NCBI RefSeq assembly: GCF_003018255.1
Contig: NZ_CP027440.1
Direction: 5' to 3' (one strand)
Length of the DNA: 64,000 nucleotides
Origin: Escherichia coli
GTDB taxonomy: Bacteria > Pseudomonadota > Gammaproteobacteria > Enterobacterales > Enterobacteriaceae
Part shown: positions 1 to 64,000 of the stretch, piece by piece
Layout: every line of letters begins with the position of its first letter
How positions within the stretch are numbered: the first letter of the stretch is position 1
Program-made: the position numbers and the translations under genes
Notes under the pieces: model-generated
What the model was told of the DNA's origin: nothing
Seen by the model: the letters and a program-made list of their open reading frames with translations, nothing else
Database searches by the model: none

Positions 1-225
1 ACTGTTGGTGACTATGTTGCCAGCCATCAGCGAGAAGTTTCGGGGCGGATTATCCATCTTCATGCCTGGCACGTACCCGACTTCCACGGGACGTTACAGG
101 CACATGAACATCAGGCGCTGGTCTGGTGCTCACCTGAAGAGGCGCTGCAATATCCGCTGGCCCCTGCTGACATTCCATTATTAGAGGCGTTTATGGCTTT
201 ACGCGCCGCCAGACCAGCGGATTAG
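1..225 (+). CDS. nudG: CTP pyrophosphohydrolase NudG (Nudix), C-terminal part; 5' end lies outside the window
   Basis: Frame 1 reads ...GDYVASHQREVSGRIIHLHAWHVPDFHGTLQAHEHQALVWCSPEEALQYPLAPADIPLLEAFMALRAARPAD then TAG at 223-225; matches recalled NudG C-terminus. Overlaps convergent ynjH by about 35 nt. Confidence 0.75.
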   Translation, partial: TVGDYVASHQREVSGRIIHLHAWHVPDFHGTLQAHEHQALVWCSPEEALQYPLAPADIPLLEAFMALRAARPAD

Positions 226-463
226 TGCTAAGGTTTTTGTCATCCTGTTGGCATTGCAGCAGTATTCCTTCGGCTTTAATTACCGCCCCTTCAGAATAAT
301 TTTGATCCTGATAAACGCAGCACTGAGTACAGGGCTGCGCTGACTGCCCGCCTGAACTGAACACTTCTGGCGGTACGTTTACCTCCACGTCCGGACGATA
401 ATGCGGGTTAGCCAGTGCAATTATTGGAAATGCTAATACTACGGCGAACAATGCTCGACTCAC
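191..463 (-). CDS. ynjH: DUF1496 secreted protein YnjH (90 aa, N-terminal signal peptide)
   Basis: Track ORF 191..463; hydrophobic N-terminus MSRALFAVVLAFPIIALA; position upstream of gdhA as in E. coli. Confidence 0.8.
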   Translation of the reverse strand: MSRALFAVVLAFPIIALANPHYRPDVEVNVPPEVFSSGGQSAQPCTQCCVYQDQNYSEGAVIKAEGILLQCQQDDKNLSTNPLVWRRVKP

Positions 464-596
464 AGGGAACTCCTTAACGTTATTGTCTCTTCTACAGATA
501 ACGGTAGCCGGGCGGCAAAACTTTAGCGTCTGAGTTATCGCATTTGGTTATGAGATTACTCTCGTTATTAATTTGCTTTCCTGGGTCATTTTTTTC

Positions 597-627
597 TTGC
601 TTACCGTCACATTCTTGATGGTATAGT
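597..627 (+). promoter_or_regulatory. Candidate sigma70 promoter for gdhA (-35 TTGCTT, -10 TATAGT, long spacer)
   Basis: Hexamers read directly about 70 nt upstream of the gdhA ATG; the 19-nt spacer is non-optimal, so placement is tentative. Confidence 0.3.
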
Positions 628-698
628 CGAAAACTGCAAAAGCACATGACATAAACAACATAAGCATAATCGTATTAATATATAAGGGTTTTATATCT

Positions 699-2118: not shown

Positions 2119-4074
2119 TTATATTATCACTCCATTGCCCGCCTCTTCTGATGGCGGGCTTTTTTTCGGCGCTCTCTTGCGTGGCGAATCCTTTTTCTTC
2201 CCTTCTCCACCGCCGGGAGCCATTATTCCCCGAAACTGCCTTACCGACGTGCGCTTTGCCTGATCAATCAACTGGTACAATGTCCCCACCAGCGGCTGCA
2301 TAAAGTCCTGATAGCGACACTGCTTTTCGCTGATTTGCGTCAGCACCGATTCCCAGTGCGCGGTCATGTCCGGTCGCGTCGCCATTTCTGGCAGCGAATG
2401 GAATAGCGCTTTTCCGGCGTCGGTGGAGTGGATATAGCGCCCTTTTTTGGTCAGGAAGCCTCGCTTGAACAGCAGTTCAATAATCCCGGCGCGAGTCGCT
2501 TCTGTCCCCAGACCATCGGTCGCACGAAGGATCTTTTTCAGATCTTTGTCCTGCACAAAACGTGCTATCCCGGTCATCGCTGAAAGCAGTGTTGCATCGG
2601 TAAAATGGCGCGGCGGCTGGGTTTGCCGCTCTACCACTTCACCTTTTTCACACAGCAACTCATCGCCTTTCGCCACCACAGGCAGCGGCGTGCCGTCGTT
2701 TTCTTCATCGCGCTCTTTGCTGCCTAACAGTGTGCGCCAGCCTGCTTCAGCAAGAAAACGGGCTTTAGCGACAAATTTGCCTTTGGCAATGTCCAGTTCG
2801 ATAACACACTTGCGGAACACCGCATCCGGGCAGAACTGCATCAAATACTGACGGGCAATCAGGTTATAGACCTTCGCTTCGTTCTCCGTCAGGTTGATCG
2901 CAGAACTCCGTGCGGTCGGGATGATGGCGTGGTGCGCATCGACTTTTTTGTCATCCCAACAGCGGTTGCGTATATCTGGATCGACCACTGGCTGCGGCAA
3001 CAGATCTGGTGCATGAACGCTGATAGCATTCATCACCGCGTGGCGTCCGGCAAAATGTTCTTCTGGCAAATAGCGGCAATCGGAACGCGGATAAGTGATT
3101 AGCTTGTGCGTTTCGTACAGCTTCTGGCAGATATCAAGCACGTTCTGCGCGCTCAGACCAAAACGTTTAGCCGCTTCAATCTGCAACGCCGAAAGCGAAA
3201 AAGGCAGCGGCGCGGATTCTGATTCCCGTTTATCGTTATAGCTGGTGACAATAGCTGGTTGACCACTAATGCGGTTAACCACATGCTCCGCCAGTGGACG
3301 ATGTAATAAGCGCCCTTCTTCATCCTGGTACGGTTCACACGCTTCGCTCGGTTGCCAGATAGCGGTAAACCGCTCATCGGCAGGTGTCACGATATGTGCT
3401 TTGACTTCAAAGAAGTCTTTCGCCACGAAGTTTTCAATCTCTTCGTCGCGGCGCACCACCAGTCCGAGTACGGGCGTCTGCACGCGTCCCACGGAAAGCA
3501 CGCCCTGATAACCGGCATTGCGACCGAGAATGGTATACGCACGGGTCATATTAATGCCGTACAGCCAGTCAGCTCGCGCACGCGCCAGTGCAGAAACGCA
3601 CAGCGGTACAAACTCGCTATTGGAGCGAAGACGATCGATCGCCCGCTCAACCGCCTGCGGGTTCAGGTCGTTTATCAAACAACGCTGTACCTGCTGGCGC
3701 TTTTCCGGTGCCAGTTGCAGGTAGTCCAGCACTTCATCCACCAGCAGTTGCCCTTCGCGATCCGGGTCTCCGGCGTGAACGATTTCGCTGGCTTCATGCA
3801 GGAAGCGTTTGATGACATTAAGTTGTTTAGTCACGGAGGGTCGGGGCTGTAATTGCCACTTTTCCGGGACAATCGGCAAATCCGCAAGATTCCAGCGCGC
3901 ATAGCGGCTGTCGTAGGCGTCTGGCTGCGCCTGCTCAAGCAGGTGACCGATACACCAGGTCACCACCTGACCATTACCGCACTCGATAAAGCCATCGCCT
4001 TTCCGGTGCGGTTTAGGCAGGACATCAGCAATGGCGCGCGCCAGACTCGGTTTTTCGGCAATAAACAACCGCAT
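2119..4074 (-). CDS. topB: DNA topoisomerase III
   Basis: Track ORF 2119..4131; start placed at internal [10 protein letters not shown] (recalled TopB N-terminus), giving 651 aa; Toprim/topo IA motifs; lysine/arginine-rich C-terminal tail. Confidence 0.92.
2137..2166 (+). terminator. Rho-independent terminator downstream of gdhA (lies inside the 3' end of the topB ORF)
   Basis: gcccgcc-tcttctgat-ggcgggc followed by TTTTTTT. Confidence 0.65.
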
Positions 4075-4078
4075 TGAA

Positions 4079-5122
4079 TTAACGGATCTCAACCATGGCA
4101 CGACCGCCGCGCGCTGGCACCAGTTCGCCAATCGCCGTCAGTTCAATGCCAAACTCGGCGGCTGTAGCTTTGACCTCATTTTCTGCTTCCGGCATGACCG
4201 CCAGCAGCAAACCGCCAGAAGTTTGCGGATCGCACAGCAGTTCGCGCACTTCACGCGGCATTTCACCCATCAGATGACCGTAGCTGGCAAAGTTACGTTC
4301 GGTGCCGCCAGGCACTGCGCCCAACTTAATGTACTCTTCAACCCCCGGCAATTTCGGGATCGCGTCATAGTCGACGCGCGCCTGCACACCTGCGCCCTGA
4401 CACATTTCGCTTAAATGCCCCAGTAAACCAAAACCCGTAACGTCGGTCATCGCTTTTACGCCTTCGATGTTGGCAAAGGACGCGCCTGCGATGTTCATCC
4501 GGCACATCACTTCCGTCGCCAGTCCCTGATGTTCTGGTTTCAGCAGTGATTTTTTCTCAGCCGTGGTAAGAACGCCAATCCCCAGAGGTTTCGTCAGGAA
4601 CAGTTTGCATCCGGCTTGTGCGGTACTGTTTTTCTTCACCCGCTCGGTAGGTACGATCCCCGTTACCGCCAGACCAAAAATCGGCTCCGGCGCATCGATG
4701 GAGTGACCGCCAGCCAGCGCAATACCCGCCTGACGGCATGCATGGCGTCCACCTTCGGTCACTTCGCGGGCAATTTCCGGGGAAAGTTTGTTAATCGGCC
4801 AGCCGAGGATCGCAATCGCCATAATCGGTTTGCCGCCCATTGCGAAGATATCGCTGATGGCGTTAGTCGCCGCAATGCGGCCAAAATCGAAAGGATTATC
4901 AACGATCGGCATAAAGAAGTCGGTGGTGCTGATAACGCTGGTGCCATTGCCCAGATCGTACACCGCCGCATCGTCGCGGGTTTCATTACCCACAAGCAAA
5001 TTCGGATCAACAAACTTCGCCTGCTCACTGTGCAGGATGGTTTCCAACACTTTTGGGGAAATTTTACAGCCGCAACCAGCGCCGTGGCTGTATTGGGTCA
5101 AACGAATCGAGTTCTCGCTCAT
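4079..5122 (-). CDS. selD: Selenide, water dikinase (selenophosphate synthetase)
   Basis: Start at [20 protein letters not shown] (347 aa); stop 5 nt upstream of the topB start, consistent with a selD-topB operon. Confidence 0.95.
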
Positions 5123-5238
5123 GGACATCTCCTGTCAATGCAATCCGGGTATGGTAACCCTCATTCCGTGAAGTGATAAGTGAGAGTGTCTGAATTCCTG
5201 CGCCTTTGCTCACAATCCAGACAGTTTCGCGACAATTA

Positions 5239-5790
5239 TCAGAAATAAGTCACAAACGGCGTCGGGTCCGGGACGTTTATCGACGTAGATGCTTTCAACT
5301 GCGGCGTACCGAGGTAGAGAAAACCGACAATTTTATCCTGCTCACGGCAACCGAATGCTTCACGCACTACCGGACTTTCAGTTAATGCACCACTGCGCCA
5401 GATGCCGCCAAACCCCTGGGCAACTGCTGCCATTTGCATCGCCATGACCGCGCATCCCGCAGACATTTCCTGTTCCCAGCGCGGGACTTTATGATTTTCT
5501 TCGCATTTCGCCACCACCGTTATGATGAGCGGTGCGCGGAACGGCGCATTACGCGCTTTGTCGATGGCTTTGTTATCACTACCGGCAGCAATCGCCCCCT
5601 GCTCCAGTACGGCGCTGAAACGCTCGCGCCCTTCCCCTTCAATCACAAAGAAATGCCACGGTTGCATGGACTTATGGTCCGGCGCACGCATAGCCGCACG
5701 CAGGATGTTTTGCAGTTGTTCACCCGTTGGCGCAGGTTCAGCCAGGCGGGAGGCGCTACGGCGATTGATCAATAGTTCGAGTGCATCCAT
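5239..5790 (-). CDS. ydjA: NAD(P)H nitroreductase YdjA
   Basis: Start at [12 protein letters not shown] gives 183 aa; nitroreductase-family sequence. Confidence 0.88.
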
Positions 5791-5950
5791 TTGATTAACT
5801 CCTGTCATGATATTTATTCACAAAATTAACACGAGAGTGGATTTTGTTACAGCCCAGTCCGCAATTCCTGCTGACAAGTGCCGGTTGGGTCATTACGATA
5901 ACCACATCTATTGCGCCTGAAACAGGTGTGACCTTAAGTTGGGAGAATAC

Positions 5951-7807
5951 ATGCGAACCCTTTGGCGATTTATTGCCGGATTTTTTAAATGGACGTGGCG
6001 TCTGCTGAATTTCGTCCGTGAAATGGTACTTAACCTGTTCTTTATTTTTCTCGTGCTGGTTGGTGTGGGGATCTGGATGCAGGTCAGTGGTGGTGATTCG
6101 AAAGAAACGGCCAGTCGTGGCGCACTGCTGCTGGACATTTCTGGTGTGATCGTCGATAAACCCGACAGTTCTCAGCGGTTTAGTAAATTAAGCCGCCAGC
6201 TGCTTGGTGCCAGTTCCGATCGTCTGCAGGAAAACTCACTGTTTGATATCGTCAACACCATTCGCCAGGCGAAGGACGACCGCAATATCACCGGTATTGT
6301 GATGGATCTGAAAAACTTCGCAGGCGGCGACCAGCCGTCTATGCAGTACATCGGCAAAGCTCTGAAAGAGTTTCGTGATAGCGGGAAACCGGTTTATGCC
6401 GTTGGCGAGAACTACAGCCAGGGGCAATATTATCTCGCCAGTTTCGCCAATAAAATTTGGCTGTCTCCGCAAGGCGTGGTTGATCTGCACGGCTTTGCCA
6501 CCAACGGTCTGTACTACAAATCATTACTGGATAAGCTGAAAGTTTCCACCCATGTGTTCCGCGTGGGTACGTATAAATCTGCCGTTGAACCGTTTATTCG
6601 TGATGATATGTCGCCGGCAGCCCGCGAAGCTGACAGCCGCTGGATTGGTGAGCTGTGGCAAAACTATCTGAATACTGTTGCCGCTAACCGGCAGATCCCT
6701 GCTCAGCAGGTATTCCCTGGCGCGCAAGGGTTGCTTGAGGGTTTAACCAAAACCGGTGGCGATACCGCGAAATATGCGCTGGAAAACAAGCTGGTCGATG
6801 CACTGGCATCGAGTGCCGAAATCGAAAAAACTCTGACCAAAGAGTTCGGCTGGAGCAAGACTGATAAAAATTATCGCGCCATCAGTTATTACGATTACGC
6901 ATTGAAAACGCCGGCAGATACCGGTGACAGCATCGGAGTCGTCTTCGCTAATGGCGCAATTATGGATGGCGAGGAAACTCAGGGGAATGTTGGCGGTGAT
7001 ACCACTGCGGCACAAATCCGCGACGCTCGCCTTGACCCGAAAGTGAAAGCGATTGTCCTGCGTGTTAATAGCCCAGGCGGCAGCGTTACCGCGTCTGAAG
7101 TGATTCGCGCTGAACTGGCAGCAGCCCGGGCAGCGGGTAAGCCTGTGGTTGTATCGATGGGCGGCATGGCGGCATCTGGTGGTTACTGGATTTCCACACC
7201 AGCTAATTACATTGTGGCTAACCCCAGCACCCTGACCGGTTCTATCGGTATCTTCGGCGTGATCACCACCGTAGAAAATAGTCTGGATTCGATTGGTGTT
7301 CATACTGATGGTGTCTCAACTTCACCGCTGGCGGATGTTTCTATCACCAGAGCACTGCCGCCGGAAGCGCAGCAGATGATGCAGTTAAGCATTGAGAATG
7401 GCTATAAACGCTTTATCACGCTGGTTGCTGATGCGCGTCATTCAACGCCAGAGCAGATTGATAAAATCGCCCAGGGCCATGTCTGGACCGGTCAGGATGC
7501 AAAAGCTAACGGGCTGGTCGATAGTCTCGGGGATTTCGATGATGCGGTCGCCAAAGCAGCAGAGCTGGCAAAAGTGAAACAGTGGCATCTGGAATACTAC
7601 GTTGATGAACCGACCTTCTTCGACAAAGTGATGGACAACATGTCTGGTTCTGTCCGGGCAATGTTGCCAGATGCGTTCCAGGCCATGTTACCTGCACCGC
7701 TGGCCTCGGTAGCCTCTACCGTTAAAAGTGAAAGCGACAAGCTGGCAGCGTTTAACGACCCACAAAACCGTTATGCGTTTTGCCTGACCTGCGCCAACGT
7801 GCGTTAA
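5951..7807 (+). CDS. sppA: Signal peptide peptidase A (protease IV)
   Basis: Start at [12 protein letters not shown] gives 618 aa; tandem S49 peptidase domains. Confidence 0.95.
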
Positions 7808-7971
7808 GTCTTGTACTGAGTGGCCGACAGATCGTCGGCCACATTTTTTTACCTCGACGAATCCTCTTCCCGCTGTCTCGCCCCATATTTCCTTATCCGC
7901 ATAGTATCAGGTGCGCTCCCCCTTCCTCACGTATATACTTTTGCTCTTTCGATATCATTCATATCAATATC

Positions 7972-8988
7972 ATGCAAAAGAAATCAATTTACGTCGCCTA
8001 CACGGGCGGGACCATCGGGATGCAGCGTTCCGAGCAGGGTTATATTCCGGTGTCAGGTCATCTACAGCGCCAACTGGCGCTGATGCCGGAATTCCATCGC
8101 CCGGAGATGCCAGATTTCACTATTCATGAATATACGCCATTGATGGATTCTTCTGATATGACGCCAGAAGACTGGCAGCATATTGCTGAAGATATTAAAG
8201 CGCACTATGACGACTATGATGGTTTTGTCATTCTGCACGGCACAGACACGATGGCGTATACCGCCTCTGCACTGTCGTTCATGCTCGAGAATCTCGGTAA
8301 ACCGGTCATTGTGACAGGGTCACAAATCCCGCTGGCTGAGTTACGCTCTGACGGACAAATTAATCTGCTGAATGCGTTGTACGTTGCGGCGAATTATCCT
8401 ATCAACGAAGTAACTCTCTTTTTTAATAATCGACTGTATCGTGGCAACAGAACCACCAAAGCCCATGCCGATGGTTTTGATGCGTTTGCCTCTCCAAACC
8501 TTCCTCCGTTACTGGAAGCAGGTATCCATATTCGCCGTTTGAATACGCCACCCGCCCCGCACGGTGAAGGGGAATTGATCGTTCATCCAATCACGCCGCA
8601 ACCAATTGGCGTAGTGACGATTTATCCGGGGATTTCTGCTGACGTCGTGCGCAATTTTCTGCGCCAACCTGTGAAAGCATTGATTCTGCGCTCATATGGC
8701 GTGGGTAATGCGCCACAAAACAAAGCCTTCCTGCAGGAATTACAAGAAGCCAGCGATCGCGGTATTGTGGTGGTCAACCTGACACAATGTATGTCCGGTA
8801 AAGTGAACATGGGTGGTTATGCCACCGGTAACGCCCTCGCCCATGCCGGCGTTATTGGCGGTGCAGATATGACTGTAGAAGCCACGCTAACCAAACTGCA
8901 TTACCTGCTTAGCCAGGAACTTGATACTGAAACCATTCGCAAGGCCATGAGCCAAAACCTGCGTGGCGAACTGACGCCGGATGATTAA
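7972..8988 (+). CDS. ansA: Cytoplasmic L-asparaginase I
   Basis: Start at MQKKSIYVAYTGGTIGM gives 338 aa; asparaginase TGGTIG motif. Confidence 0.95.
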   Translation: MQKKSIYVAYTGGTIGMQRSEQGYIPVSGHLQRQLALMPEFHRPEMPDFTIHEYTPLMDSSDMTPEDWQHIAEDIKAHYDDYDGFVILHGTDTMAYTASALSFMLENLGKPVIVTGSQIPLAELRSDGQINLLNALYVAANYPINEVTLFFNNRLYRGNRTTKAHADGFDAFASPNLPPLLEAGIHIRRLNTPPAPHGEGELIVHPITPQPIGVVTIYPGISADVVRNFLRQPVKALILRSYGVGNAPQNKAFLQELQEASDRGIVVVNLTQCMSGKVNMGGYATGNALAHAGVIGGADMTVEATLTKLHYLLSQELDTETIRKAMSQNLRGELTPDD

Positions 8989-8998
8989 GGAGACTGCA

Positions 8999-9640
8999 AT
9001 GCACCCTCGCGCCCTGTTACTGGTCGATTTACAAAATGATTTCTGTGCTGGTGGCGCGCTCGCCGTGCCGGAAGGTGACAGTACGGTGGATGTCGCTAAC
9101 CGCCTGATTGACTGGTGCCAGTCGCGCGGTGAAGCGGTTATCGCCAGTCAGGACTGGCACCCGGCGAATCACGGCAGTTTTGCCAGTCAGCACGGTGTAG
9201 AGCCTTATACGCCAGGCCAACTCGACGGTTTGCCACAAACCTTCTGGCCAGATCACTGTGTGCAGAACAGTGAAGGCGCACAATTACATCCGTTACTGAA
9301 CCAAAAAGCGATCGCAGCGGTGTTCCATAAAGGCGAAAATCCTTTAGTTGACAGTTACAGTGCCTTTTTTGATAACGGCCGTCGGCAGAAAACCACGCTC
9401 GATGACTGGTTACGCGATCATGAAATCGATGAATTGATCATTATGGGTCTGGCTACTGACTATTGCGTGAAGTTTACCGTGCTGGACGCGTTACAGTTAG
9501 GTTATAAGGTTAATGTGATTACCGATGGTTGTCGTGGCGTGAATATCCAGCCACAGGACAGTGCGCACGCGTTTATGGAGATGTCAGCAGCTGGGGCAAC
9601 GCTATATACGCTGGCAGATTGGGAAGAGACGCAGGAGTAA
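8999..9640 (+). CDS. pncA: Nicotinamidase/pyrazinamidase
   Basis: Start at MHPRALLLVDLQNDFC gives 213 aa; isochorismatase-fold catalytic residues. Confidence 0.92.
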   Translation: MHPRALLLVDLQNDFCAGGALAVPEGDSTVDVANRLIDWCQSRGEAVIASQDWHPANHGSFASQHGVEPYTPGQLDGLPQTFWPDHCVQNSEGAQLHPLLNQKAIAAVFHKGENPLVDSYSAFFDNGRRQKTTLDDWLRDHEIDELIIMGLATDYCVKFTVLDALQLGYKVNVITDGCRGVNIQPQDSAHAFMEMSAAGATLYTLADWEETQE

Positions 9641-9660
9641 TATTAGTTGGATTCATCTCT

Positions 9661-9691
9661 GGCCTACATTTCCTCAATGACATTGTAGGCC
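9661..9691. other. Inverted repeat (8-bp stem GGCCTACA / TGTAGGCC, 15-nt loop) in the pncA-yeaC junction
   Basis: Read directly from ggcctacatttcctcaatgacattgtaggcc; no T-run follows, so not a canonical terminator. Confidence 0.3.
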
Positions 9692-9800
9692 AGGTAATAC
9701 TTGTTAGTGTTGCATTTAACCTACTCGCAGCTAAAACACGACATCCGAACAAGTCTATTTGCCCTCCCTTAATAACAGGCTTAAATACTAGACAACTCAT

Positions 9801-10073
9801 TCACTTAAACATGGCAATAGGCTTTGCTGAGATACCAAAATCTTCTTTTAACTGTTGTTTGCTCTTCATGACCATCTGACCATTTGTGTCAATTGTCATA
9901 TGCTGTGCTTCGGTATTATTACGGGCTTGCCACAGCATCACCAGTTGCAGGCAGTTCTCTTTTTGTTCCTCGGTCAACGCAACGCCATCAGGCCATTTCC
10001 CCAGTTCAACGGCGGTCGACAAACGCTGGTATACCTCAGGCGTCATGCTGTTGATAATGTCATCAAGATTCAT
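9801..10073 (-). CDS. yeaC: DUF1315 protein YeaC
   Basis: Start at MNLDDIINSMTPEVYQRL gives 90 aa; directly downstream of msrB. Confidence 0.85.
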   Translation of the reverse strand: MNLDDIINSMTPEVYQRLSTAVELGKWPDGVALTEEQKENCLQLVMLWQARNNTEAQHMTIDTNGQMVMKSKQQLKEDFGISAKPIAMFK

Positions 10074-26972: not shown

Positions 26973-26974
26973 AG

Positions 26975-53105: not shown

Positions 53106-53117
53106 TCTGGAGGATTA

Positions 53118-53764: not shown

Positions 53765-53900
53765 GTTAAGGTTGCGCCCTCATTTGGGGAGTAGCCGATT
53801 TCCAGATTCCGGAAATGTACGTGTCAACATACTCGTTGCAAAACGTGGCACGTACGGACTGAACACTTTCAGTCAGGCGAGACCATATGCACATCAATCG
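53765..53900 (+). ncRNA. yybP-ykoY-type manganese riboswitch in the mntP leader
   Basis: Contains UUUGGGGAGUAG and GGCGAGACCA-like segments typical of the yybP-ykoY motif within the 5' leader of mntP. Confidence 0.55.
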
Positions 53901-54004
53901 CTATGCCTGCATGAACGCGAAAACCATCGCGGTTTGTCGTTCATGTATGCATGTTTGCTGGGGGCGATGATGTGTTTTATGGATACCCCGGTCAGGACGT
54001 TGTC

Positions 54005-54571
54005 ATGAATATCACTGCTACTATTCTTCTTGCGTTTGGTATGTCGATGGATGCATTTGCTGCATCAATCGGTAAAGGTGCCACCCTCCATAAACCGAAA
54101 TTTTCTGAAGCGTTGCGAACCGGCCTTATTTTTGGTGCTGTCGAAACCCTGACGCCGCTGATCGGCTGGGGAATGGGCATGTTAGCCAGCCGGTTTGTCC
54201 TTGAATGGAACCACTGGATTGCGTTTGTGCTGCTGATATTCCTCGGCGGGCGAATGATTATTGAGGGTTTTCGTGGCGCAGATGATGAAGATGAAGAGCC
54301 GCGCCGTCGACACGGTTTCTGGCTACTGGTAACCACCGCGATTGCCACCAGCCTGGATGCCATGGCTGTGGGTGTTGGTCTTGCTTTCCTTCAGGTCAAC
54401 ATTATCGCGACCGCATTGGCCATTGGTTGTGCAACCTTGATTATGTCGACATTAGGGATGATGGTTGGTCGCTTTATCGGCTCAATTATTGGGAAAAAAG
54501 CGGAAATTCTCGGCGGGCTGGTGCTGATCGGCATCGGCGTCCAGATCCTCTGGACGCACTTCCACGGTTAA
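54005..54571 (+). CDS. mntP: Manganese efflux pump MntP
   Basis: Start at [19 protein letters not shown] gives 188 aa. Confidence 0.9.
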
Positions 54572-55377
54572 TAAGAACGCTGCCAGAGGTGAATATTAAA
54601 GTCCGTCTGGCAGTCGAACACTTCTTTTGCTGCCAGTGTTTGCCAGACTTCTGGCTTCGCACGCCAGGCAAACGGCGTCATCTGCAATAATGCGACGGCT
54701 TCATCACCGCGAAGACGCATCGGATAACACAACTCATCACTCTGCTGTAATGTAAAACCTTCGAGTTGTTCTGCATGTGGTGCATGAAGATGTACTTCAT
54801 TGTAAATCAGCCCCTTCAGCTCCATCAAATGTCGCGGTCCCGGCGTGGCAGTAATGACCCAACCGCCAGGCTTCACTACTCGCGCTAATTCTTCTGCTTT
54901 ACACGGCGCGTAAATACGTATTATGGCGTCCATACTGGTATCGGAAAACGGCAAACGGTGGCTGGAAGCAACACAAAAAGTGACCTGCGGATAGCGTTTC
55001 GCCGCCGCTTTTATCGCAACCTTCGAAACATCCAGACCAAACGTGGTGATTTCGGGCAACGCATCGGCAAATGCGTGTGTGTAATACCCTTCACCACAGC
55101 CAATATCCAGCACCGCCGTGGCCTTTTCATCAAGCCGTTCCCGCAGTTGGGCGACAATTGCATCACGCAGCGGCTGATAATGTCCGGCATCTAAGAATGC
55201 GCGGCGTGCTTGCATCATTTCCGCGCTGTCGCCCGGATCACGAGACCGTTTATGCTGAACGGGCAGCAGATTGACATACCCTTCTTTCGCCATATCAAAC
55301 TGATGTCGCTGGGGACAGATATAGCTGTTTTTTTCACGCGAAAGAGGCTGATGGCAAAGTGGACAGGAAAACGACAT
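54568..55377 (-). CDS. rlmA: 23S rRNA m1G745 methyltransferase RlmA
   Basis: 269-aa ORF with N-terminal Cys4 zinc motif and SAM-binding GCGEGYY. Confidence 0.92.
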
Positions 55378-55470
55378 GACAACTCCGGCAGGATACTAAA
55401 GGCCGCAAGTGTAACGCGAATCACGCGGCGGGCAAATATCCGAACGACTGGAGCGAAGATAAAGCAAAGT

Positions 55471-55497
55471 AAAAAGCCTCGCATTCGACGAGGCTTT
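55471..55497 (-). terminator. Rho-independent terminator of cspC
   Basis: On the minus strand: agcctcg-tcgaatg-cgaggct followed by TTTTT. Confidence 0.75.
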
Positions 55498-55542
55498 ATA
55501 GCGAGATTGAAGCGTATTCACACTTCAGATCAGTGGATTCGA

Positions 55543-55752
55543 TCAGATAGCTGTTACGTTAACAGCTGCCGGACCTTTCTGACCGTCCTGAATTTCGAAC
55601 TCAACGTTCTGACCTTCAGCCAGAGTTTTGAAACCATTACCCTGGATAGCAGAGAAGTGTACGAACACGTCTTTGCTGCCATCAGCCGGAGTAATGAAGC
55701 CAAAACCTTTAGACTCGTTGAACCACTTAACCTGACCTTTAATCTTTGCCAT
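55543..55752 (-). CDS. cspC: Cold-shock-domain protein CspC
   Basis: 69-aa ORF with RNP motifs KGFGFI and VFVHF. Confidence 0.95.
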
Positions 55753-55764
55753 TTGAAAAATTCC

Positions 55765-55908
55765 TTAGATTGTTTTCTTCGCCCGCAGGCATAACATAGA
55801 TAAAACTGACACATTACTGCATGAGGCACCAATATAAGGCTCGGCAGAGAAGCGGTATTCAACGTCAACGTGTTTACTCAGGACTTCTTTACTGAAAATG
55901 CCACACAT
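55765..55908 (-). CDS. yobF: Small protein YobF (47 aa)
   Basis: Minus-strand ATG..TAA encoding [47 protein letters not shown], 12 nt upstream of cspC. Confidence 0.7.
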
Positions 55909-56534
55909 AAACAGAACTGTACCTCGTTTAACCCGAAATCTGTTATCACATACAACGTTAATTATGGCAAGCCATTTTTAAACATGTCTCGATCAGACGC
56001 ACAAATCTCGATACGTCTTCCACTTTTTTTGCACACTTATGCAACGGAATACGCGCCGATATATCATTGTGCTTAACCTTGCCAGTTCAGGCAGATACTT
56101 AAACTGACGTATTTTCTAACATAGTTCAATAAGTTCAGTTGTTCCAGGCCAGTGGGAGAAGTTATTACATAGTGCGTGCAATATCACATTTTCTGCTATG
56201 CAATGAATAAAAAGTTATATCACTTTTTCTCATAAAACAGTCAGTTAACGGCTATCGATCACCCCAAAGAGAAGTCAATCGCCAAAGGTATTGTAAATTT
56301 AAAATAAGAAAAATTGATGAATGCGCAAAAAAATCAAGAGAGAAACGTTTCGCTAATAAATAATACCACGCTTAATCACAAATCCGATGTAAACATCCTA
56401 ATAAATTAATGGGCTAAATATCTTTTTCTGATATCCCGTTACGCAAATAAATAATATGATAATTATTTGAAGTCAGACCAGAGTTTTAATTTGAAGCAGT
56501 TGCACCATGACAGTGCGTATAATCAGGATGAATT

Positions 56535-56562
56535 GAGTAACCCTTCAACGACGGGGTTACTC
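56535..56562 (-). terminator. Hairpin downstream of yebO
   Basis: gagtaaccc-ttcaacgac-ggggttactc, 16 nt past the yebO stop; no clear T-tract. Confidence 0.4.
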
Positions 56563-56577
56563 AAGATTGAGGAAGGA

Positions 56578-56865
56578 TTATCGTTCGGCGACCAGACGAA
56601 TAATATCTTCGTCTTCAACCGATTTTTGACTCTCAACGGTCTTTTTATCTGCTTTCTCAGGTTCGTTTGCTTCGCACAAACGACGTAACAGAGCATTTTG
56701 ACGTTTTTGCTGATCCAGCAACGCCTCAAGCAGTTCAATCTGTTCGTTAGTCCGTGAACTGGCACGATTGATAAAAAACCACAAGATAAGCCCGATAAAA
56801 AGAACCACCACCGATACAACCAAAGACGCAATGTTCATCACGCCTGAATTTACAACTTCGTTCAT
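56578..56865 (-). CDS. yebO: Membrane protein YebO
   Basis: 95-aa ORF with N-terminal TM helix and charged coiled C-terminus. Confidence 0.85.
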   Translation of the reverse strand: MNEVVNSGVMNIASLVVSVVVLFIGLILWFFINRASSRTNEQIELLEALLDQQKRQNALLRRLCEANEPEKADKKTVESQKSVEDEDIIRLVAER

Positions 56866-56939
56866 TTCACCACCTCTGAGTAGAGGCGCTATTCTACCAC
56901 TGCTGGAGAGGAAGAAAATCTAGTGCTGAAAAAATGATA

Positions 56940-57083
56940 TCACCACGGGATAAACTGGTTAATGGCACAAATTCCGCTGAAAAATTGTACATCCTGATCG
57001 CACATCATGTTGAATACCTGCGCCCAAAGCAGCAAGCAAGCCAACACCACGACAACCAGAACGACCCATCGAAACTTTTTCAC
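56940..57083 (-). CDS. mgrB: PhoQ-inhibitory small membrane protein MgrB (47 aa)
   Basis: Minus-strand GTG..TGA encoding [47 protein letters not shown]. Confidence 0.8.
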
Positions 57084-57241
57084 TCCAATCTCCGTTTCAC
57101 CTACCTTATGTCATTAAACTAGCATGCGTTAGTTAAACAGCGCCTAACTATGTCGATATTCGTGCTTTTTCAGAATGAGTCGCTTGCTTCAGCGCATATT
57201 GCCGCTACGATTAAGCGAACATAAAAAGAGAAGAGGTTGTA

Positions 57242-57481
57242 ATGCGATTCATCATTCGCACAGTTATGCTGATAGCACTGGTATGGATAGGATTATTACT
57301 CAGCGGATATGGCGTTTTGATTGGAAGCAAAGGGAATGCCGCGGGATTAGGTTTGCAATGTACCTATCTGACCGCCAGAGGCACCAGCACGGTACAATAC
57401 CTGCACACTAAAAGTGGTTTTCTGGGGATAACAGATTGCCCGTTGTTACGTAAAAGCAATATTGTGGTCGATAATGGTTAA
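57242..57481 (+). CDS. yobH: Small secreted/membrane protein YobH
   Basis: 79-aa ORF with signal-like N-terminus. Confidence 0.8.
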   Translation: MRFIIRTVMLIALVWIGLLLSGYGVLIGSKGNAAGLGLQCTYLTARGTSTVQYLHTKSGFLGITDCPLLRKSNIVVDNG

Positions 57482-57582
57482 GGGTAATAAATAACCAGAT
57501 TCTCACTCATGAGTAAAATATTCTTATCGCAAGTACGTTTAATATAACGCCACCTTCAACTTTATTTTTCTCATGCTCAATA

Positions 57583-57616
57583 AAGAACCTGTCTGTTTGA
57601 TATTCAGACAGGTTCT
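57583..57616. terminator. Strong hairpin between convergent yobH and kdgR
   Basis: aagaacctgtctg-tttgatattc-agacaggttctt (12-13 bp stem). Confidence 0.5.
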
Positions 57617-57624
57617 TACTCTCA

Positions 57625-58416
57625 TCAGAACGGATAGTCGTGATAACCCATTTGGGCAGAAATTTTGCGCGCCGCGGTATGCAACATTGCGACATATTCC
57701 TGTAAACGCTCTTCAGAGAAACGCAACGTCGGGAAGGAGATGCTAAGACCGGCAATGACCACGCCAAAGCGATCAAATACCGGAACCGCAATGCATCGCA
57801 GCCCTTCTTCCTGCTCTTCGTTATCTTCGCCATACCCCTGCTCACGCACCTGGTCCAGAACGGGTAATAACGCTTCTGTACTGGTGATGGTCCGCTCGGT
57901 ACTGCGTTTATACTCCACGCCCTCAAGAATTTGCTTCACTTCATCGCGATCGCGCCATGCCAGCAGTACCTTACCAATCGCGGTGCTGTACAGCGGATTA
58001 CGACGCCCAATCCGTGAATACATGCGCAAATTGTACATAGAGTCAATTTTGTGAATGTAAACAATACTGTCTTCGTCCAGTGCGCCGAGGTGGATAGTTT
58101 CTTTGGTCAGGCGGGAGATCTCACGCATCTGGATATCTGCGCTACGAATTAAATCGACGTTTTGTAACGCGCGAGCGCCCAGTTCAAACAATTTCAGGGT
58201 CAGGGAATATTTCTCCGACTCCCCTTCCTGCGCCACATAACCTAAGGTTTTCATGGTCTGTAAAAAGCGATAAACGGTGCTTTTTGACATCATGACGCGC
58301 TGCGACAGCTCGGTTATCCCTATTTCGCGCTCTTCACCCAGCGCCTGCAAAATGCCAAAAACTTTTAGCACGGAAGATACAGAATCAGGCTGTTTATCCA
58401 GATCTGCGTTAGCCAT
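57625..58416 (-). CDS. kdgR: IclR-family transcriptional regulator KdgR
   Basis: 263-aa ORF with N-terminal HTH. Confidence 0.93.
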   Translation of the reverse strand: MANADLDKQPDSVSSVLKVFGILQALGEEREIGITELSQRVMMSKSTVYRFLQTMKTLGYVAQEGESEKYSLTLKLFELGARALQNVDLIRSADIQMREISRLTKETIHLGALDEDSIVYIHKIDSMYNLRMYSRIGRRNPLYSTAIGKVLLAWRDRDEVKQILEGVEYKRSTERTITSTEALLPVLDQVREQGYGEDNEEQEEGLRCIAVPVFDRFGVVIAGLSISFPTLRFSEERLQEYVAMLHTAARKISAQMGYHDYPF

Positions 58417-58592
58417 TTATCACCTCATTGCGAGTGTTTTATAAAAATCAGAACTGTTTTTTATTATAATTTCGCACCTGGGTGGTCGCAATCCATCTTT
58501 TGCCGGTTAGTTACAATTCTGCGACATCCACCGTGAATATCAGTGCTAGAATCATACCCCTGTTGATTATTCACCAAAGATATAAAATTCCT

Positions 58593-59966
58593 ATGCCAAA
58601 AGTTCAGGCCGACGGCCTGCCATTGCCCCAGCGATACGGTGCGATATTAACCATTGTGATTGGTATTTCGATGGCTGTCCTTGACGGCGCAATCGCCAAC
58701 GTCGCCCTGCCAACAATCGCCACGGACCTTCATGCCACGCCAGCCAGTTCCATCTGGGTAGTGAACGCCTATCAAATCGCCATTGTCATCTCCCTGCTCT
58801 CGTTTTCGTTTCTGGGCGATATGTTTGGCTATCGACGTATTTATAAATGCGGTCTGGTCGTTTTTCTGTTGTCTTCACTGTTCTGCGCCCTTTCTGATTC
58901 GCTGCAAATGCTCACCCTTGCGCGTGTCATACAAGGTTTCGGCGGTGCAGCGTTGATGAGCGTTAATACCGCACTTATCCGCCTGATCTATCCACAACGT
59001 TTTCTGGGTAGAGGGATGGGCATAAACTCGTTTATTGTTGCCGTCTCTTCTGCTGCCGGGCCGACAATTGCTGCAGCAATCCTCTCCATCGCATCCTGGA
59101 AATGGTTATTTTTAATCAACGTACCGTTAGGTATTATCGCCCTGCTTCTGGCGATGCGTTTTCTGCCACCCAATGGTTCTCGCGCCAGTAAACCCCGTTT
59201 CGACCTGCCCAGCGCCGTGATGAACGCGTTAACCTTCGGCCTGCTTATCACTGCGTTGAGTGGTTTCGCTCAGGGGCAATCGCTGACGTTAATTGCTGCG
59301 GAACTGGTGGTAATGGTTGTTGTTGGTATTTTCTTTATTCGCCGCCAGCTTTCTCTTCCCGTACCGCTGCTACCGGTGGATTTACTGCGTATCCCGCTGT
59401 TTTCACTTTCTATTTGCACATCTGTTTGCTCTTTCTGCGCACAAATGCTGGCAATGGTTTCCCTGCCCTTTTACCTGCAAACCGTGCTCGGGCGTAGTGA
59501 AGTCGAAACAGGCTTACTTCTGACACCGTGGCCGTTAGCAACGATGGTGATGGCTCCGCTGGCAGGCTATTTGATTGAACGCGTACATGCAGGACTGCTG
59601 GGTGCTTTAGGGTTGTTCATCATGGCTGCGGGGCTTTTTTCCCTGGTTCTGCTGCCCGCGTCACCTGCGGATATCAATATTATCTGGCCGATGATCTTAT
59701 GTGGCGCTGGATTTGGCTTATTCCAGTCACCCAATAACCACACCATTATAACCTCCGCTCCGCGCGAACGTAGCGGTGGGGCCAGTGGCATGTTAGGGAC
59801 GGCTCGTCTACTGGGTCAGAGTAGTGGCGCGGCGCTGGTGGCGCTGATGCTAAATCAGTTTGGTGATAATGGTACGCACGTCTCGCTGATGGCTGCGGCT
59901 ATTCTGGCAGTAATTGCTGCCTGTGTCAGTGGTTTACGTATCACTCAGCCACGAGCCTGGGCATAA
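58593..59966 (+). CDS. yebQ: MFS (DHA2-like) transporter YebQ
   Basis: Start at MPKVQADGLPLPQRYG gives 457 aa. Confidence 0.88.
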   Translation: MPKVQADGLPLPQRYGAILTIVIGISMAVLDGAIANVALPTIATDLHATPASSIWVVNAYQIAIVISLLSFSFLGDMFGYRRIYKCGLVVFLLSSLFCALSDSLQMLTLARVIQGFGGAALMSVNTALIRLIYPQRFLGRGMGINSFIVAVSSAAGPTIAAAILSIASWKWLFLINVPLGIIALLLAMRFLPPNGSRASKPRFDLPSAVMNALTFGLLITALSGFAQGQSLTLIAAELVVMVVVGIFFIRRQLSLPVPLLPVDLLRIPLFSLSICTSVCSFCAQMLAMVSLPFYLQTVLGRSEVETGLLLTPWPLATMVMAPLAGYLIERVHAGLLGALGLFIMAAGLFSLVLLPASPADINIIWPMILCGAGFGLFQSPNNHTIITSAPRERSGGASGMLGTARLLGQSSGAALVALMLNQFGDNGTHVSLMAAAILAVIAACVSGLRITQPRAWA

Positions 59967-59997
59967 AAAAAGCGCGTCGATCAGGACGCGCTTTTTA
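59965..59997. terminator. Bidirectional rho-independent terminator between yebQ and htpX
   Basis: AAAAAA-agcgcgtc-gatcag-gacgcgct-TTTTT. Confidence 0.85.
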
Positions 59998-60011
59998 GTA
60001 TTTACTTCATA

Positions 60012-60893
60012 TTACTTCAGGTATTCACCCGTACGCAGAGCTTCAATACGTTTATCCAGCGGCGGGTGAGTCATGAACAACTCACTGAGCGATTTCGACT
60101 TACCGTTAATGCAGAAAGCCATCATGCTGGTTGCTTCTTGCGGTTCATAGCTGGTTTTCAGGCGCTGCAATGCAGCAATCATTTTCTCGCGACCAACCAG
60201 TTTTGCCGAACCGGCATCAGCGTGGAATTCACGATGACGCGAGAACCACATGGTGATAATGCTCGCCAGAATACCAAACACCAGTTCCAGAACCGTTGCA
60301 ACCGCAAAGTAGATCAGCGGGTTGCCGTTGCTCTCTTCACCTTCATCACGATTTCCGCCCATAAAACCCGCGGCAAGCTGCGCCAGAATTCGGGAAATAA
60401 AGATAACGAAGGTGTTCACCACGCCCTGAATCAGCGTCATGGTGACCATATCACCATTGGCGATGTGGCTGATTTCGTGAGCAATTACCGCCTCGGCTTC
60501 ATCCGGGCTCATGTTCTGCAGCAAACCGGTGCTGACAGCAACCAGAGAGGCATCACGGCGCGCACCGGTTGCAAAAGCGTTGATGTCCGGCGCATGGTAG
60601 ATAGCCACTTGCGGCATAGCGATCCCCGCCTGACGAGCCTGGGTTGCTACAGTATTGACCAGCCAACGTTCCCTTTCGTTACGCGGTTGCTCGATCACTT
60701 CCCCGCCAACAGATCGTAATGCCATCCATTTGGACATCAGAAGCGAAACGAAGGAACCACCAAAACCGAACAGCAAGGCCATGATCATCAGCCCCTGAAC
60801 GCTGCTCGACTGTATCCCTGTCAGGCTCAGTACCAGCCCGAAAACGACCATTACGGCCAGGTTCGTTAGCAGGAAGAGCGCGATTCGCATCAT
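60012..60893 (-). CDS. htpX: Membrane zinc metalloprotease HtpX
   Basis: 293-aa ORF with HEISH motif. Confidence 0.95.
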
Positions 60894-61047
60894 AATTTTC
60901 TTTTTACCTCAGTTTAACAAAACGCAATATGCGATACCCACATCGTATGGGTTACGCGACTATTTTCAAGTCTGGATAGTGCGTAAGTCACCAGAAAGAC
61001 ACAACTTTACATTTTGTAGCATCTGATTTACGGCATCTTGCCGCTGT

Positions 61048-61080
61048 TAAAAAATCAGGCACAATTTCTTGTGCCTGATT
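61048..61080 (-). terminator. Rho-independent terminator of prc
   Basis: On the minus strand: aatcaggcac-aagaaatt-gtgcctgatt followed by TTTTT. Confidence 0.7.
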
Positions 61081-61084
61081 GATA

Positions 61085-63133
61085 TTACTTGACGGGAGCG
61101 GGTTGTTCCGCGGGTCTGGCTTTTTCAAGCTTCGCCAGATCGAGTGCGATATTCACCGTCTCATCCAGATAAGGATCCGGCTCCTGGTAATCTTTCGGTA
61201 GATCATCCAGTTTCTTCAACTCCGGTTTACCTTCGCGCTTAAAGCGTTCGTTCAAACGCGCCAGACGCGTCGCATCATCTTCATTATTCTCTTTCTCACG
61301 CACAGCGTAATTCAGAGAAACGATATTGCGCTTGTCCTTCATAGCGTTGAAGCGCGCGATATCCTTCATGATGTTCTGGAACTCTGGATCTTTCGCGATA
61401 CGCGCATTATGTTCCTTCAGCAGCTCCGGTCCAAAGGCCGTCAAATCTCCCGATTTCACATAGGTCGCGGCATCGATGCTATCCCACGGCAGCGCGTTAT
61501 CTTCGAATTTCTCACCGGTTTCCGTTTCTTCATTACCCGTCGGCATGATGATGTCTGGCGTTACGCCTTTACGTTGCGTACTGCCGCCGTTAACGCGATA
61601 GAATTTCTGGATCGTGTACTGCACAGAACCCAGCGCTGGCCATTCAGGACGTAACATCTGATCGTAGATACGGTTCAATGAACGGTATTGCTGAACGGTG
61701 CCTTTACCAAACGTCGGTTCACCCACAACCAGCGCACGACCGTAATCCTGCATTGCCGCGGCAAAGATTTCTGAAGCCGAAGCACTGAAGCGGTCAACCA
61801 GCACCACCAGCGGGCCTTTATAGAAAACCTGCCCATCGGTATCGCTGTCTTCACGAACTTTACCGTTGTTATCACGGACCTGAACAATCGGACCGGATGG
61901 AATGAACAGACCGGAGAGCGATACCGCTTCGGTCAACGCCCCACCGCCATTGCTACGCAGGTCGATGATGACACTGCTGACATTCTGTTTTTCCAGTTTC
62001 TGCAACTGCACTTTGACATCGTCTGTCAAACCCACATAGAAACCTGGAATATCCAGAACGCCGACTTTCTCTTTACCGACGGTCTTCACCGACATTTTAA
62101 CCGCACGGTCTTCGAGGCGAATACGTTCACGGGTCAACGTTACAGTACGGGTCTTGGTCCCTTTACCAGCAGGTAAAATTTCCAGACGAACTTTACTGCC
62201 CTTCGGCCCTTTAATTAAGGCAACCACATCATCAAGACGCCAGCCAATCACGTCAACCATCGGCTTGCCTGTTTGACCAACACCGACAATTTTGTCACCA
62301 ACGCTGATAGCTTTACTCTTCGCTGCCGGACCACCTGCCACCATCGAATTGATAACGGTGTAGTCATCATCCATTTGCAGAACTGCGCCAATACCTTCCA
62401 GCGACAAACTCATTTCAGTGTTGAACTGTTCGGTATTACGCGGGGAAAGATAGTTGGTATGCGGGTCGATTTCACGCGCAAACGCCGTCATTGCCAGCGA
62501 GAAAACATCTTCGCTGTTGGTTTGCGCCAGACGACGAATGGCAAATTTGTAGCGGCGAGTCAGGGTTTCACGAATTTCTTTATCCGTTTTTCCTGCCAGC
62601 TTCAGGCTTAACTCGTCGAATTTGACTTTACTGTCCCACAGCGCGTTCAACTCAGCCTCGTTTTTCGGCCAGGGCGCTTTGCTGCGGTCAAGGTTATAAG
62701 TGTCGTTGCCGGTGAAATCCATCGGCTTTTCCAGTACCGACAAAGCGTACTGGTAACGTTCAAAACGACGCTTTTGCGCCAGATTGTAGAGATCGTAGAA
62801 AACGTCGAGTTTGCCTGAACGCAGTTCATCGCCTAACTCGGTTTTCTTTTTCGCGAACTGTTCAACATCGCTTGCCAGCAGCACGTTGTGGCTGTAATCG
62901 AGCAGATTCAGATAGCGGTCAAAGATTTTGGCCGAAAATGCCTGATCGAGGTCGAACTGGCGATAATGAGAACGGGTGAAGCGCGACGTTACGCGCTCAC
63001 TCACCGTCGCATGCTGCGTCTCTTCCTTTAATACCGGAATTTGATCAGCACGCGTGATATCTTCTACAGCGAAGGTCTGGCCTGCTATTGCAAGCAGGCC
63101 AGCTAACGCGGTAAGCCTAAAAAACATGTTCAT
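61085..63133 (-). CDS. prc: Tail-specific periplasmic protease Prc
   Basis: Start at MNMFFRLTALAGLLAIAGQTFA gives 682 aa. Confidence 0.95.
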   Translation of the reverse strand: MNMFFRLTALAGLLAIAGQTFAVEDITRADQIPVLKEETQHATVSERVTSRFTRSHYRQFDLDQAFSAKIFDRYLNLLDYSHNVLLASDVEQFAKKKTELGDELRSGKLDVFYDLYNLAQKRRFERYQYALSVLEKPMDFTGNDTYNLDRSKAPWPKNEAELNALWDSKVKFDELSLKLAGKTDKEIRETLTRRYKFAIRRLAQTNSEDVFSLAMTAFAREIDPHTNYLSPRNTEQFNTEMSLSLEGIGAVLQMDDDYTVINSMVAGGPAAKSKAISVGDKIVGVGQTGKPMVDVIGWRLDDVVALIKGPKGSKVRLEILPAGKGTKTRTVTLTRERIRLEDRAVKMSVKTVGKEKVGVLDIPGFYVGLTDDVKVQLQKLEKQNVSSVIIDLRSNGGGALTEAVSLSGLFIPSGPIVQVRDNNGKVREDSDTDGQVFYKGPLVVLVDRFSASASEIFAAAMQDYGRALVVGEPTFGKGTVQQYRSLNRIYDQMLRPEWPALGSVQYTIQKFYRVNGGSTQRKGVTPDIIMPTGNEETETGEKFEDNALPWDSIDAATYVKSGDLTAFGPELLKEHNARIAKDPEFQNIMKDIARFNAMKDKRNIVSLNYAVREKENNEDDATRLARLNERFKREGKPELKKLDDLPKDYQEPDPYLDETVNIALDLAKLEKARPAEQPAPVK

Positions 63134-63152
63134 GCCTGGCCCGGCCTCCGTT

Positions 63153-63851
63153 TCAGAACACCAGGTGTTCTGCGCGCACAATCAAAGACATACCCGAATT
63201 CAGCTGGACGCGGACGCCGTCTTTGGTGATTTCTAATACGGTGGCATCCATCGCGTTTTGACCCGCTTTCACCTTCAGGGCTTGTCCGACAGTCAGAGCT
63301 GAAATGTCAGAAACCGGGGTGTGCTGTTCTTCGCGAGGTGCTTTTACTGTTTTTGGCGCTTTCTCTACCGGCTTTTGCGCACGAGGTTTACGTTCAGCGC
63401 CTTCTTTGCGGCGTGGCGTGGTCGGACGTGGCTTGCGTTCACGGCGCGGTGCGTCTTCTTTCTCACCAGCAGCTGCGGCAGCTTCGCGTTTTTTCGCTTG
63501 CTGCTCAGCACGCTGTGCCTGAACACGCGCTTTCGCTTCTTCAAGCTGCTTGCGAGCATGCTCTACATGTTGCTCGTCCAGCTCACCGCATGGGTTGCCG
63601 TCAAGATCGACACGCGTTGCGCCGGGTTTAACACCGTAAAGGTAACGCCAGCTCGAAGTGTAGAGACGTAAAGCGGATCGCAATTGCGTTTTGCTCAGGT
63701 TCATTTCCCCGGCAACACGATCGACCAAATCCTGAAAAATACCGATTTTCAGCGGACGCGCTTCACCTTCCGCACTGAAACAGTGGGGAAAACGTTCGGC
63801 CAGAAACGCGATTACTTCTTTACTGCTATTCAACTTAGGTTGATTTTCCAT
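63153..63851 (-). CDS. proQ: RNA chaperone ProQ
   Basis: 232-aa ORF with FinO-like N-domain, basic linker and C-terminal Tudor-like domain. Confidence 0.95.
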
Positions 63852-63947
63852 GAAATTTCCTGATTACAACGGACGTAGCCAACAAGCGCAGGCATGAACA
63901 GGCGTCATTATAATGACGCTATCAGTAAATGCTACGTTATCCGTTGA

Positions 63948-64000
63948 TTATCCTGCGACGCTCGCAAAGAATTTTTTGTAATCCGTCGTTGCAAGCACCT
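63948..64000 (-). CDS. msrC: Possible 3' end of msrC/yebR (free methionine-R-sulfoxide reductase); start outside the window
   Basis: Minus-strand frame ...VLATTDYKKFFASVAG then TAA; call based on expected gene order, frame not verified. Confidence 0.3.
   Translation of the reverse strand, partial: VLATTDYKKFFASVAG

Follow-up and report, generated by a model that had tools for sequence, protein, structure and literature searches.

Collinearity of the window with reference genomes

Here, we analysed a 64-kb stretch of Escherichia coli contig NZ_CP027440.1 (hereafter the window, 64,000 nucleotides in all), for which a preliminary description made from the letters alone had reported no mobile, defence or otherwise unexplained system. 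We conclude, with a probability of about 0.94, that the window consists of ordinary E. coli core chromosome, already known, and has neither a mobile element nor a defence system. It is collinear with reference genomes, it is present in nearly all complete genomes, and its content consists of named orthologues of K-12 genes. The earlier claim was thus confirmed by collinearity, a PADLOC profile scan, searches of phage and plasmid collections and repeat scans, with one putative repetitive extragenic palindromic (REP) hairpin downstream of gdhA as a technical exception. The window represents a standard-order core segment from nudG to proQ, carrying genes for central metabolism, the envelope, cyclic di-GMP, transport and RNA processing. 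Its differences from K-12 (the absence of ynjI and of ydjE–ydjL, a full-length yeaV and a frameshifted yeaE) are common presence/absence polymorphisms of the species. The result is a clean negative, which allows this stretch of ordinary core chromosome to be set aside and shows that the unaided reading of the letters was reliable here.

The window was compared in three chunks (1–25 kb, 25–50 kb and 50–64 kb) by megablast with 5,426 complete E. coli genomes. All except one (5,425 of 5,426) matched the window chunks, mostly at 95–99% identity and at best up to 99.6%, and named chromosomal genes were found throughout. At least 80% of the chunk was covered in 5391, 4371 and 5411 of the 5426 genomes for chunks 1, 2 and 3, respectively. 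The 25–50 kb chunk is covered contiguously in 4,371 of the 5,426 genomes because about 1,050 complete genomes have lost dmlR'–dmlA–yeaV–yeaW–yeaX, the D-malate and carnitine monooxygenase genes, with pseudogene stubs left behind; the window has these genes intact (about 29000–35150). The lower coverage of this chunk was therefore rejected as evidence that the window carries an insertion, given that the other genomes have the dmlR'–yeaX deletion or insertion sequences (IS) of their own.

Local blastn against K-12 MG1655 (NC_000913.3, about 1,841,674–1,915,682) resolved the window into four collinear blocks at 97.0–98.4% nucleotide identity, so that the whole-window alignment to reference E. coli genomes proposed in the preliminary description returned core, collinear chromosome. 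The first block (1–2043; 97.4%) holds the 3′ part of nudG, ynjH and gdhA, whose proteins are 96.7–99.3% identical to those of K-12. The second (2144–9645; 97.0%) holds topB, selD, ydjA, sppA, ansA and pncA, the third (9803–31252; 98.4%) extends from yeaC through dmlA, and the fourth (31477–63998; 98.3%) from yeaV through proQ. DNA found in the window and not in K-12 was restricted to segments of 100, 157 and 224 bp. With no window-specific segment larger than 224 bp, an IS or gene-sized insertion relative to K-12 is not possible.

The gene order runs from a partial nudG through ynjH, gdhA, topB, selD, ydjA, sppA, ansA, pncA, yeaC, msrB, gapA, yeaD, yeaE, mipA, yeaG and yeaH to cdgI, dgcJ, yeaK, yoaI, yeaL, nimR, nimT, yeaO, yoaF, dgcP, yoaK, yoaJ, yeaQ and yoaG. 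It continues with yeaR, leuE, dmlR, dmlA, yeaV, yeaW, yeaX, rnd, fadD, yeaY, tsaB, yoaA, yoaB and yoaC, and then with yoaH, pabB, nudL, sdaA, pdeD, yoaE, yoaL, manXYZ, yobD, mntP, rlmA, cspC and yobF, and ends with yebO, mgrB, yobH, kdgR, yebQ, htpX, prc and proQ. The nudG–proQ region of K-12 shares both this order and the orientation of the genes. By tblastn, all 68 K-12 proteins of the region were recovered in order at 96.7–100% amino acid identity, and 67 of them are intact, the frameshifted yeaE being the remaining one. Since each gene has a named K-12 orthologue at 97–100%, the functions given here are those predicted from the K-12 annotation.

The placed genes and RNA features account for 87.6% of the window and leave no gap longer than 669 bp. 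Of the open reading frames (ORFs) that are unannotated or antisense, the ten longest (163–292 aa) matched no Pfam family, and long ORFs of up to 292 aa that run antisense to or overlap with genes were rejected as hidden genes on this ground; the families found most often across all ORFs were ordinary metabolic, transport and signalling domains. Together with the 68 ordered K-12 proteins, these data bear out the statement that every ORF of at least 100 aa is accounted for. Low-GC stretches at 18–20 kb (cdgI), 41–43 kb and 55–58 kb were also considered as foreign islands and dismissed, all of them being collinear core genes in K-12 and in essentially all genomes.

Among the complete genomes, JNE23-011 (NZ_AP045067.1) is the closest over the first 25 kb (99.6%), and it is collinear with positions 1–61055 of the window at 99.2% by local blastn. 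As in the window, ynjI and ydjE–ydjL are missing from it and its yeaV is full length. It differs from the window in that yeaE is intact, yeaD has some 18 additional bp at its 3′ end, and an IS200C lies between htpX and prc.

The identity to other genomes is mosaic along the window. Over positions 1–25000, only 3 genomes reach 99% identity and the others stay at or below 98.9%; over 50001–64000, 579 genomes reach 99% or more. This difference between the first 25 kb and the last 14 kb suggests recombination among lineages.

Differences from K-12 at ynjI, ydjE–ydjL, yeaV and yeaE

Two apparent differences in gene content and a yeaE frameshift had been noted before. The two differences are evidently the absence of ynjI and of ydjE–ydjL, and this part of the statement held; a third difference, 224 bp at yeaV, had not been listed. 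At the first site, a gdhA–topB spacer of 100 bp (2044–2143) stands in place of the 1308-bp ynjI of K-12, and this junction without ynjI is shared by 1514 of the 5425 complete genomes. At the second, a 157-bp pncA–yeaC spacer (9646–9802) replaces the 9170 bp of ydjE–ydjL, a sugar-acid cluster, and the junction without these genes was found in 1089 of 5425 genomes. Both replacements were delimited by blastn.

Given that the empty forms are this common and that both sites are polymorphic for presence and absence in the species, we asked whether the two gaps could be excision scars of mobile islands, with remnants at 2044–2143 and 9646–9802. REP-type sequences at the gdhA-side junction, in the window and in K-12 alike, also fit such an origin. 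However, the K-12 annotation has no integrase, transposase or tRNA in or beside the ynjI or ydj segments, and the window has no tRNA gene. Neither spacer in the window has a direct-repeat duplication or IS ends. A hairpin (CTGGCCTACA…TGTAGGCCA) does lie on the pncA side at 9659–9695, but the same structure lies downstream of pncA in K-12 as well, and this rules it out as a deletion scar or a miniature inverted-repeat transposable element. Moreover, the ydj genes are metabolic in the K-12 annotation (transporters, a kinase, an aldolase and dehydrogenases), and ynjI is annotated there as a DUF1266 protein. These data make an origin of the gaps by excision of mobile islands highly improbable, and we favour ordinary gene-content polymorphism of the core chromosome.

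The third difference consists of 224 bp that K-12 does not have by blastn (31253–31476, plus strand), covering the region upstream of yeaV and the 5′ end of the gene; JNE23-011 has the same segment. The yeaV gene accordingly encodes 536 aa in the window, as in JNE23-011, compared with 481 aa in K-12, and the K-12 gene looks like a 5′-truncated form. In yeaE (12884–13737, minus strand), tblastn and alignment showed a deletion of 1 nt that splits the ORF into pieces of 119 and 204 aa. One T is missing at 13262/13263 (TTT to TT) relative to both K-12 and JNE23-011. The frameshift reported earlier is thus real in the sequence, and it could reflect either a true pseudogene or an assembly error.

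Matches to defence-system profiles

All 113 ORFs of at least 90 aa in six frames were scanned with the PADLOC-DB (2023) profiles. The strongest match came from YoaA, which was hit over nearly its full length by typeIV_DinG at 3.1e-178 (and by a second such model at 9.9e-57), together with weak helicase-motif matches to Cas3d and DruE. TopB matched DpdF at 3.8e-86 over positions 20–448 of the 1499-position profile, corresponding to the topoisomerase domain, and Rnd matched BrxHI at 3.2e-12 over positions 761–917 of 925. KdgR was hit by the CARF/Csa3/CasR/WYL regulator profiles at 4.7e-06 or above, in its N-terminal helix-turn-helix region only. YoaB matched the C-terminal 80 residues of PD-T4-2_B (3.9e-10), and RlmA matched mad2 (1.6e-11) through its methyltransferase domain.

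The listed matches trace to these six genes. Each encodes a housekeeping protein with a K-12 orthologue at 97–100% and lies in its usual context. The matches cover only part of the profile, with the exception of that of YoaA. No partner genes of the matched systems were found nearby. For the Dpd system, the partial match of TopB (topB, topoisomerase III, 2119–4074, minus strand, by tblastn) was the only one, and no other Dpd model matched any of the 113 ORFs. Likewise, the partial BrxHI match of Rnd was the only sign of bacteriophage exclusion (BREX), with no other Brx match among these ORFs. Because the matched proteins are housekeeping orthologues in their normal context without partner genes, the PADLOC matches were rejected as real defence genes; they are domain-level false positives that arise through shared catalytic or DNA-binding domains. 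The window therefore offers a worked example of false positives from hidden Markov models of defence genes, and without partner genes such matches should not be read as defence systems.

The nearly full-length YoaA match raised the question of whether yoaA (39642–41552, minus strand) is the DinG (Csf4) helicase of a type IV-A CRISPR (clustered regularly interspaced short palindromic repeats) system, with the window holding part of a defence system. The two typeIV_DinG scores above speak for this, and YoaA does share the DinG/XPD helicase fold with the CRISPR-associated DinG. However, YoaA shares 99.8% identity with its K-12 counterpart across the full 636 aa and lies in the standard tsaB–yoaA–yoaB context. 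Its annotated neighbours include no cas or csf genes, and no repeat array was found anywhere in the window by Tandem Repeats Finder (TRF) or the repeat scan, so the locus differs from a type IV-A system in having neither cas/csf genes nor a CRISPR array. Type IV CRISPR systems are mostly plasmid-borne. In contrast, the segment bearing yoaA is present in 5425 of 5426 genomes, which is core behaviour. The chance that yoaA belongs to a type IV system is negligible, and this interpretation is refuted for practical purposes; yoaA is a housekeeping DinG/XPD-family helicase gene. For CRISPR-Cas in general, the window showed no repeat–spacer array, and cas-type PADLOC matches were limited to YoaA and the helix-turn-helix region of KdgR.

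Mobile elements, prophages and repeats

We then examined the window for signatures of mobile DNA. ARAGORN found 0 tRNA or tmRNA genes. TRF returned two trivial rows of 2–3.4 copies, both inside genes, with no tandem or spaced direct-repeat array, and the repeat scan of the window gave only short, imperfect and widely spaced matches of the chance type. There were no convincing terminal inverted repeats in the window; the best pair was 35 nt long with 71% complementarity, and its arms were 16.7 kb apart. No transposase or integrase is annotated in the shared DNA of K-12 or of JNE23-011 (the latter by the Prokaryotic Genome Annotation Pipeline, PGAP), the IS200C of JNE23-011 excepted. Four collinear K-12 blocks, named chromosomal genes in the JNE23-011 annotation and the single-copy status of 1–50 kb also fit the report of no integrase- or transposase-like ORFs. 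The earlier statements on tRNA genes, direct-repeat arrays and inverted terminal repeats agree with these results as well.

Two sites that are occupied by IS elements elsewhere are empty in the window. The htpX–prc spacer (60894–61084) has 191 bp, as in K-12, and carries the IS200C transposase in JNE23-011. The yeaQ–yoaG spacer (27357–27503) has 147 bp, again as in K-12, and other strains carry IS200/IS605 tnpA and tnpB there. Strain S56, for example, has IS200/IS605-family tnpA and tnpB (InsQ/TnpB) between yeaQ and yoaG, and several further strains are longer by a similar amount, about 1.75 kb, at this site.

Copy number was also evaluated across the E. coli genomes. Positions 1–50 kb occur at a median of 1 place per genome, and 50–64 kb at a median of 3 places. 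A 551-bp cspC/yobF segment alone gave 14,408 places, the same total as the whole 50–64 kb search. The multi-copy signal of 50–64 kb was therefore rejected as an IS or repeat, since this segment reproduces all of the places, and it reflects the csp paralogues.

The phage collection returned 9 records, 8 of which are short unannotated contigs with host genes. The ninth is the edge of Enterobacter phage LAU1 (MN688132.1) and includes yeaG/yeaH. This LAU1 record starts with yeaG–yeaH, at 83.8% identity to positions 15009–18308 of the window, suggesting that it includes host flank or that a prophage adjoins yeaH in Enterobacter hormaechei. The plasmid collection, searched with 50–64 kb, gave 26 records, and those listed are chromosome-sized or mega-replicons. 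Between them, the two collections gave only host-DNA contaminants and mislabelled chromosomal records.

In the PHROGs scan, 25 of the 49 matched families were listed, and 4 of these carry a description. The 'head maturation protease' family corresponds to the S49 peptidase domain of SppA, the DNA helicase family to YoaA and the ferredoxin family to YeaX; one 'membrane protein' family among the 25 was not traced to an ORF, nor were the undescribed families. The SppA domain is the only structural-category match among the families listed, and it was discarded as a prophage remnant on this identification. Overall, the window contains neither the transposase, terminal repeats and multi-copy behaviour of an IS or transposon nor the integrase, tRNA/att site and phage structural genes of a prophage or integrative element. 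The search for defence systems and prophages that had been proposed was run as closely as the tools allowed, and with the PADLOC matches falling on housekeeping genes the claim stands unrefuted.

One putative repeat of a class related to mobile elements is present. A REP-type hairpin (GCCGGATACAGCGCAAACGCCTTATCCGGCC) lies at about 2050–2083, inside the gdhA–topB spacer and right after the gdhA stop codon, as a palindrome GCCGGAT…CTTATCCGGCC just 3′ of gdhA. Half-sites of the REP consensus (GCCGGATG…CTTATCCGGCCTAC) are found at 2052–2081 with 2 mismatches each, although this pattern gives 11 sites against 7.1 expected by chance. The match of the hairpin to the Rfam family naRNA4, a REP-derived RNA, is weak (32.8 bits against a gathering score of 59.5, E=0.051). 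Like REP elements and the bacterial interspersed mosaic elements (BIMEs) that they form part of, the palindrome lies directly downstream of a gene, and K-12 has REP copies at the same position; unlike a BIME cluster, the window has a single degenerate copy below the Rfam threshold. Judged from its sequence, 2050–2083 is plausibly a REP element. REP elements are non-autonomous repeats, ubiquitous between the genes of E. coli, and this repeat class is thought to be mobilised in trans by REP-associated tyrosine transposases (RAYTs). The hairpin would be the only repeat of a mobile-element-related class in the window.

Several points weigh against the conclusion that the window is free of mobile and defence elements. 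Strictly read, 'no mobile element' would have one 34-nt exception, the REP-type hairpin at 2050–2083. The plasmid search used 50–64 kb, and in the first 50 kb IS fragments are judged absent from collinearity and the single-copy state of the sequence. PADLOC-DB 2023 is blind to defence systems that were described later or are yet undescribed, the scan took only ORFs of at least 90 aa, and the NCBIfam library was not used. Moreover, ynjH, yeaC, yeaH, yeaL, yeaO, yoaC, yoaF, yoaH, yobD, yebO and yobH are genes without a known function here.

Long AT-rich spacers and genes of unknown function

The longest intergenic gap is the yobF–yebO spacer (55909–56577; 669 bp, 36% GC), and the second longest is the yoaB–yoaC spacer (42029–42449; 421 bp, 33% GC). 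Both spacers contain only short unsupported ORFs, and neither gave an Rfam match even at E <= 0.1; as hidden elements they were rejected on these grounds. For yobF–yebO, the intrinsic terminators found within 55300–57700 all lie outside the spacer, and promoter-like sites in it did not exceed their frequency in shuffled sequence. The spacer is about 650 bp long in Salmonella and similarly long in Klebsiella, and most of its sequence has diverged. Conservation in these genera is confined to about 130 nt adjoining yobF, which comprise its promoter and 5′ untranslated region, and to a short upstream block (CCTGGAA…GAAGTTATTGAGCTATGGTAGAAAA). With no internal terminator, no excess of promoter-like sites and poor conservation across genera beyond the yobF promoter and 5′ untranslated region, a hidden element in yobF–yebO was likewise dismissed, and we take this spacer as regulatory or AT-rich spacer DNA. 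That either spacer is more than promoter and silenced spacer DNA, and codes for a regulatory RNA or small protein missing from the annotation, appears very unlikely.

A broader alternative is that a gene of unknown function or one of the long AT-rich spacers has a role, yet undescribed, in defence, as a toxin–antitoxin or as a regulatory RNA. The candidates would be yeaO (DUF488), yoaC (DUF1889), yoaG–yeaR and yebO/yobH, along with the yobF–yebO (669 bp) and yoaB–yoaC (421 bp) spacers. In both the PGAP and the K-12 annotation, the candidate genes carry no more than DUF-type names, the regions are AT-rich (33–36% GC), and the length of yobF–yebO is kept in Salmonella and Klebsiella; all of this would fit such a function. 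However, yeaO and yoaC had no PADLOC match when scanned individually, and among the ORFs of at least 90 aa no PADLOC match traces to the other genes of unknown function. Furthermore, the candidate genes are core and syntenic, and accessory defence genes are typically neither. The spacer itself is poorly conserved beyond the roughly 130 nt next to yobF, and yobF–yebO has no convincing small ORF, internal terminator, excess of promoter-like sites or Rfam match. We consider an undescribed function of this kind extremely doubtful, and ordinary core genes with regulatory or AT-rich spacer DNA between them remain our preferred interpretation.

RNA elements and minor observations

Rfam was run at the gathering threshold and then at E <= 0.1, and the RNA features of the window are one known small RNA, sroD, and two cis-regulatory RNAs. 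The sroD RNA (36336–36421, minus strand; RF00370, 115.2 bits against a gathering score of 50) lies between rnd and fadD and overlaps the 3′ end of fadD. The yobF–cspC transcript region (55468–55928, minus strand) matched the cspA thermoregulator model at the gathering threshold, and no other segment of the window is multi-copy (paralogous). Upstream of mntP, a Mn2+ (yybP-ykoY) riboswitch was found at 53778–53874 on the plus strand (RF00080, E=6.4e-08); its score of 41.9 bits is just under the gathering score of 45, and it is therefore missed by a default Rfam scan.

The omissions of the preliminary description are minor: the REP-type hairpin (2050–2083), sroD, the Mn riboswitch upstream of mntP and the additional DNA at yeaV. 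Finally, we observed that an additional paralogue of ftsI lies between rlmA and cspC in Salmonella and Klebsiella, at a site that corresponds to 55378–55542 of the window; it is not present in E. coli.

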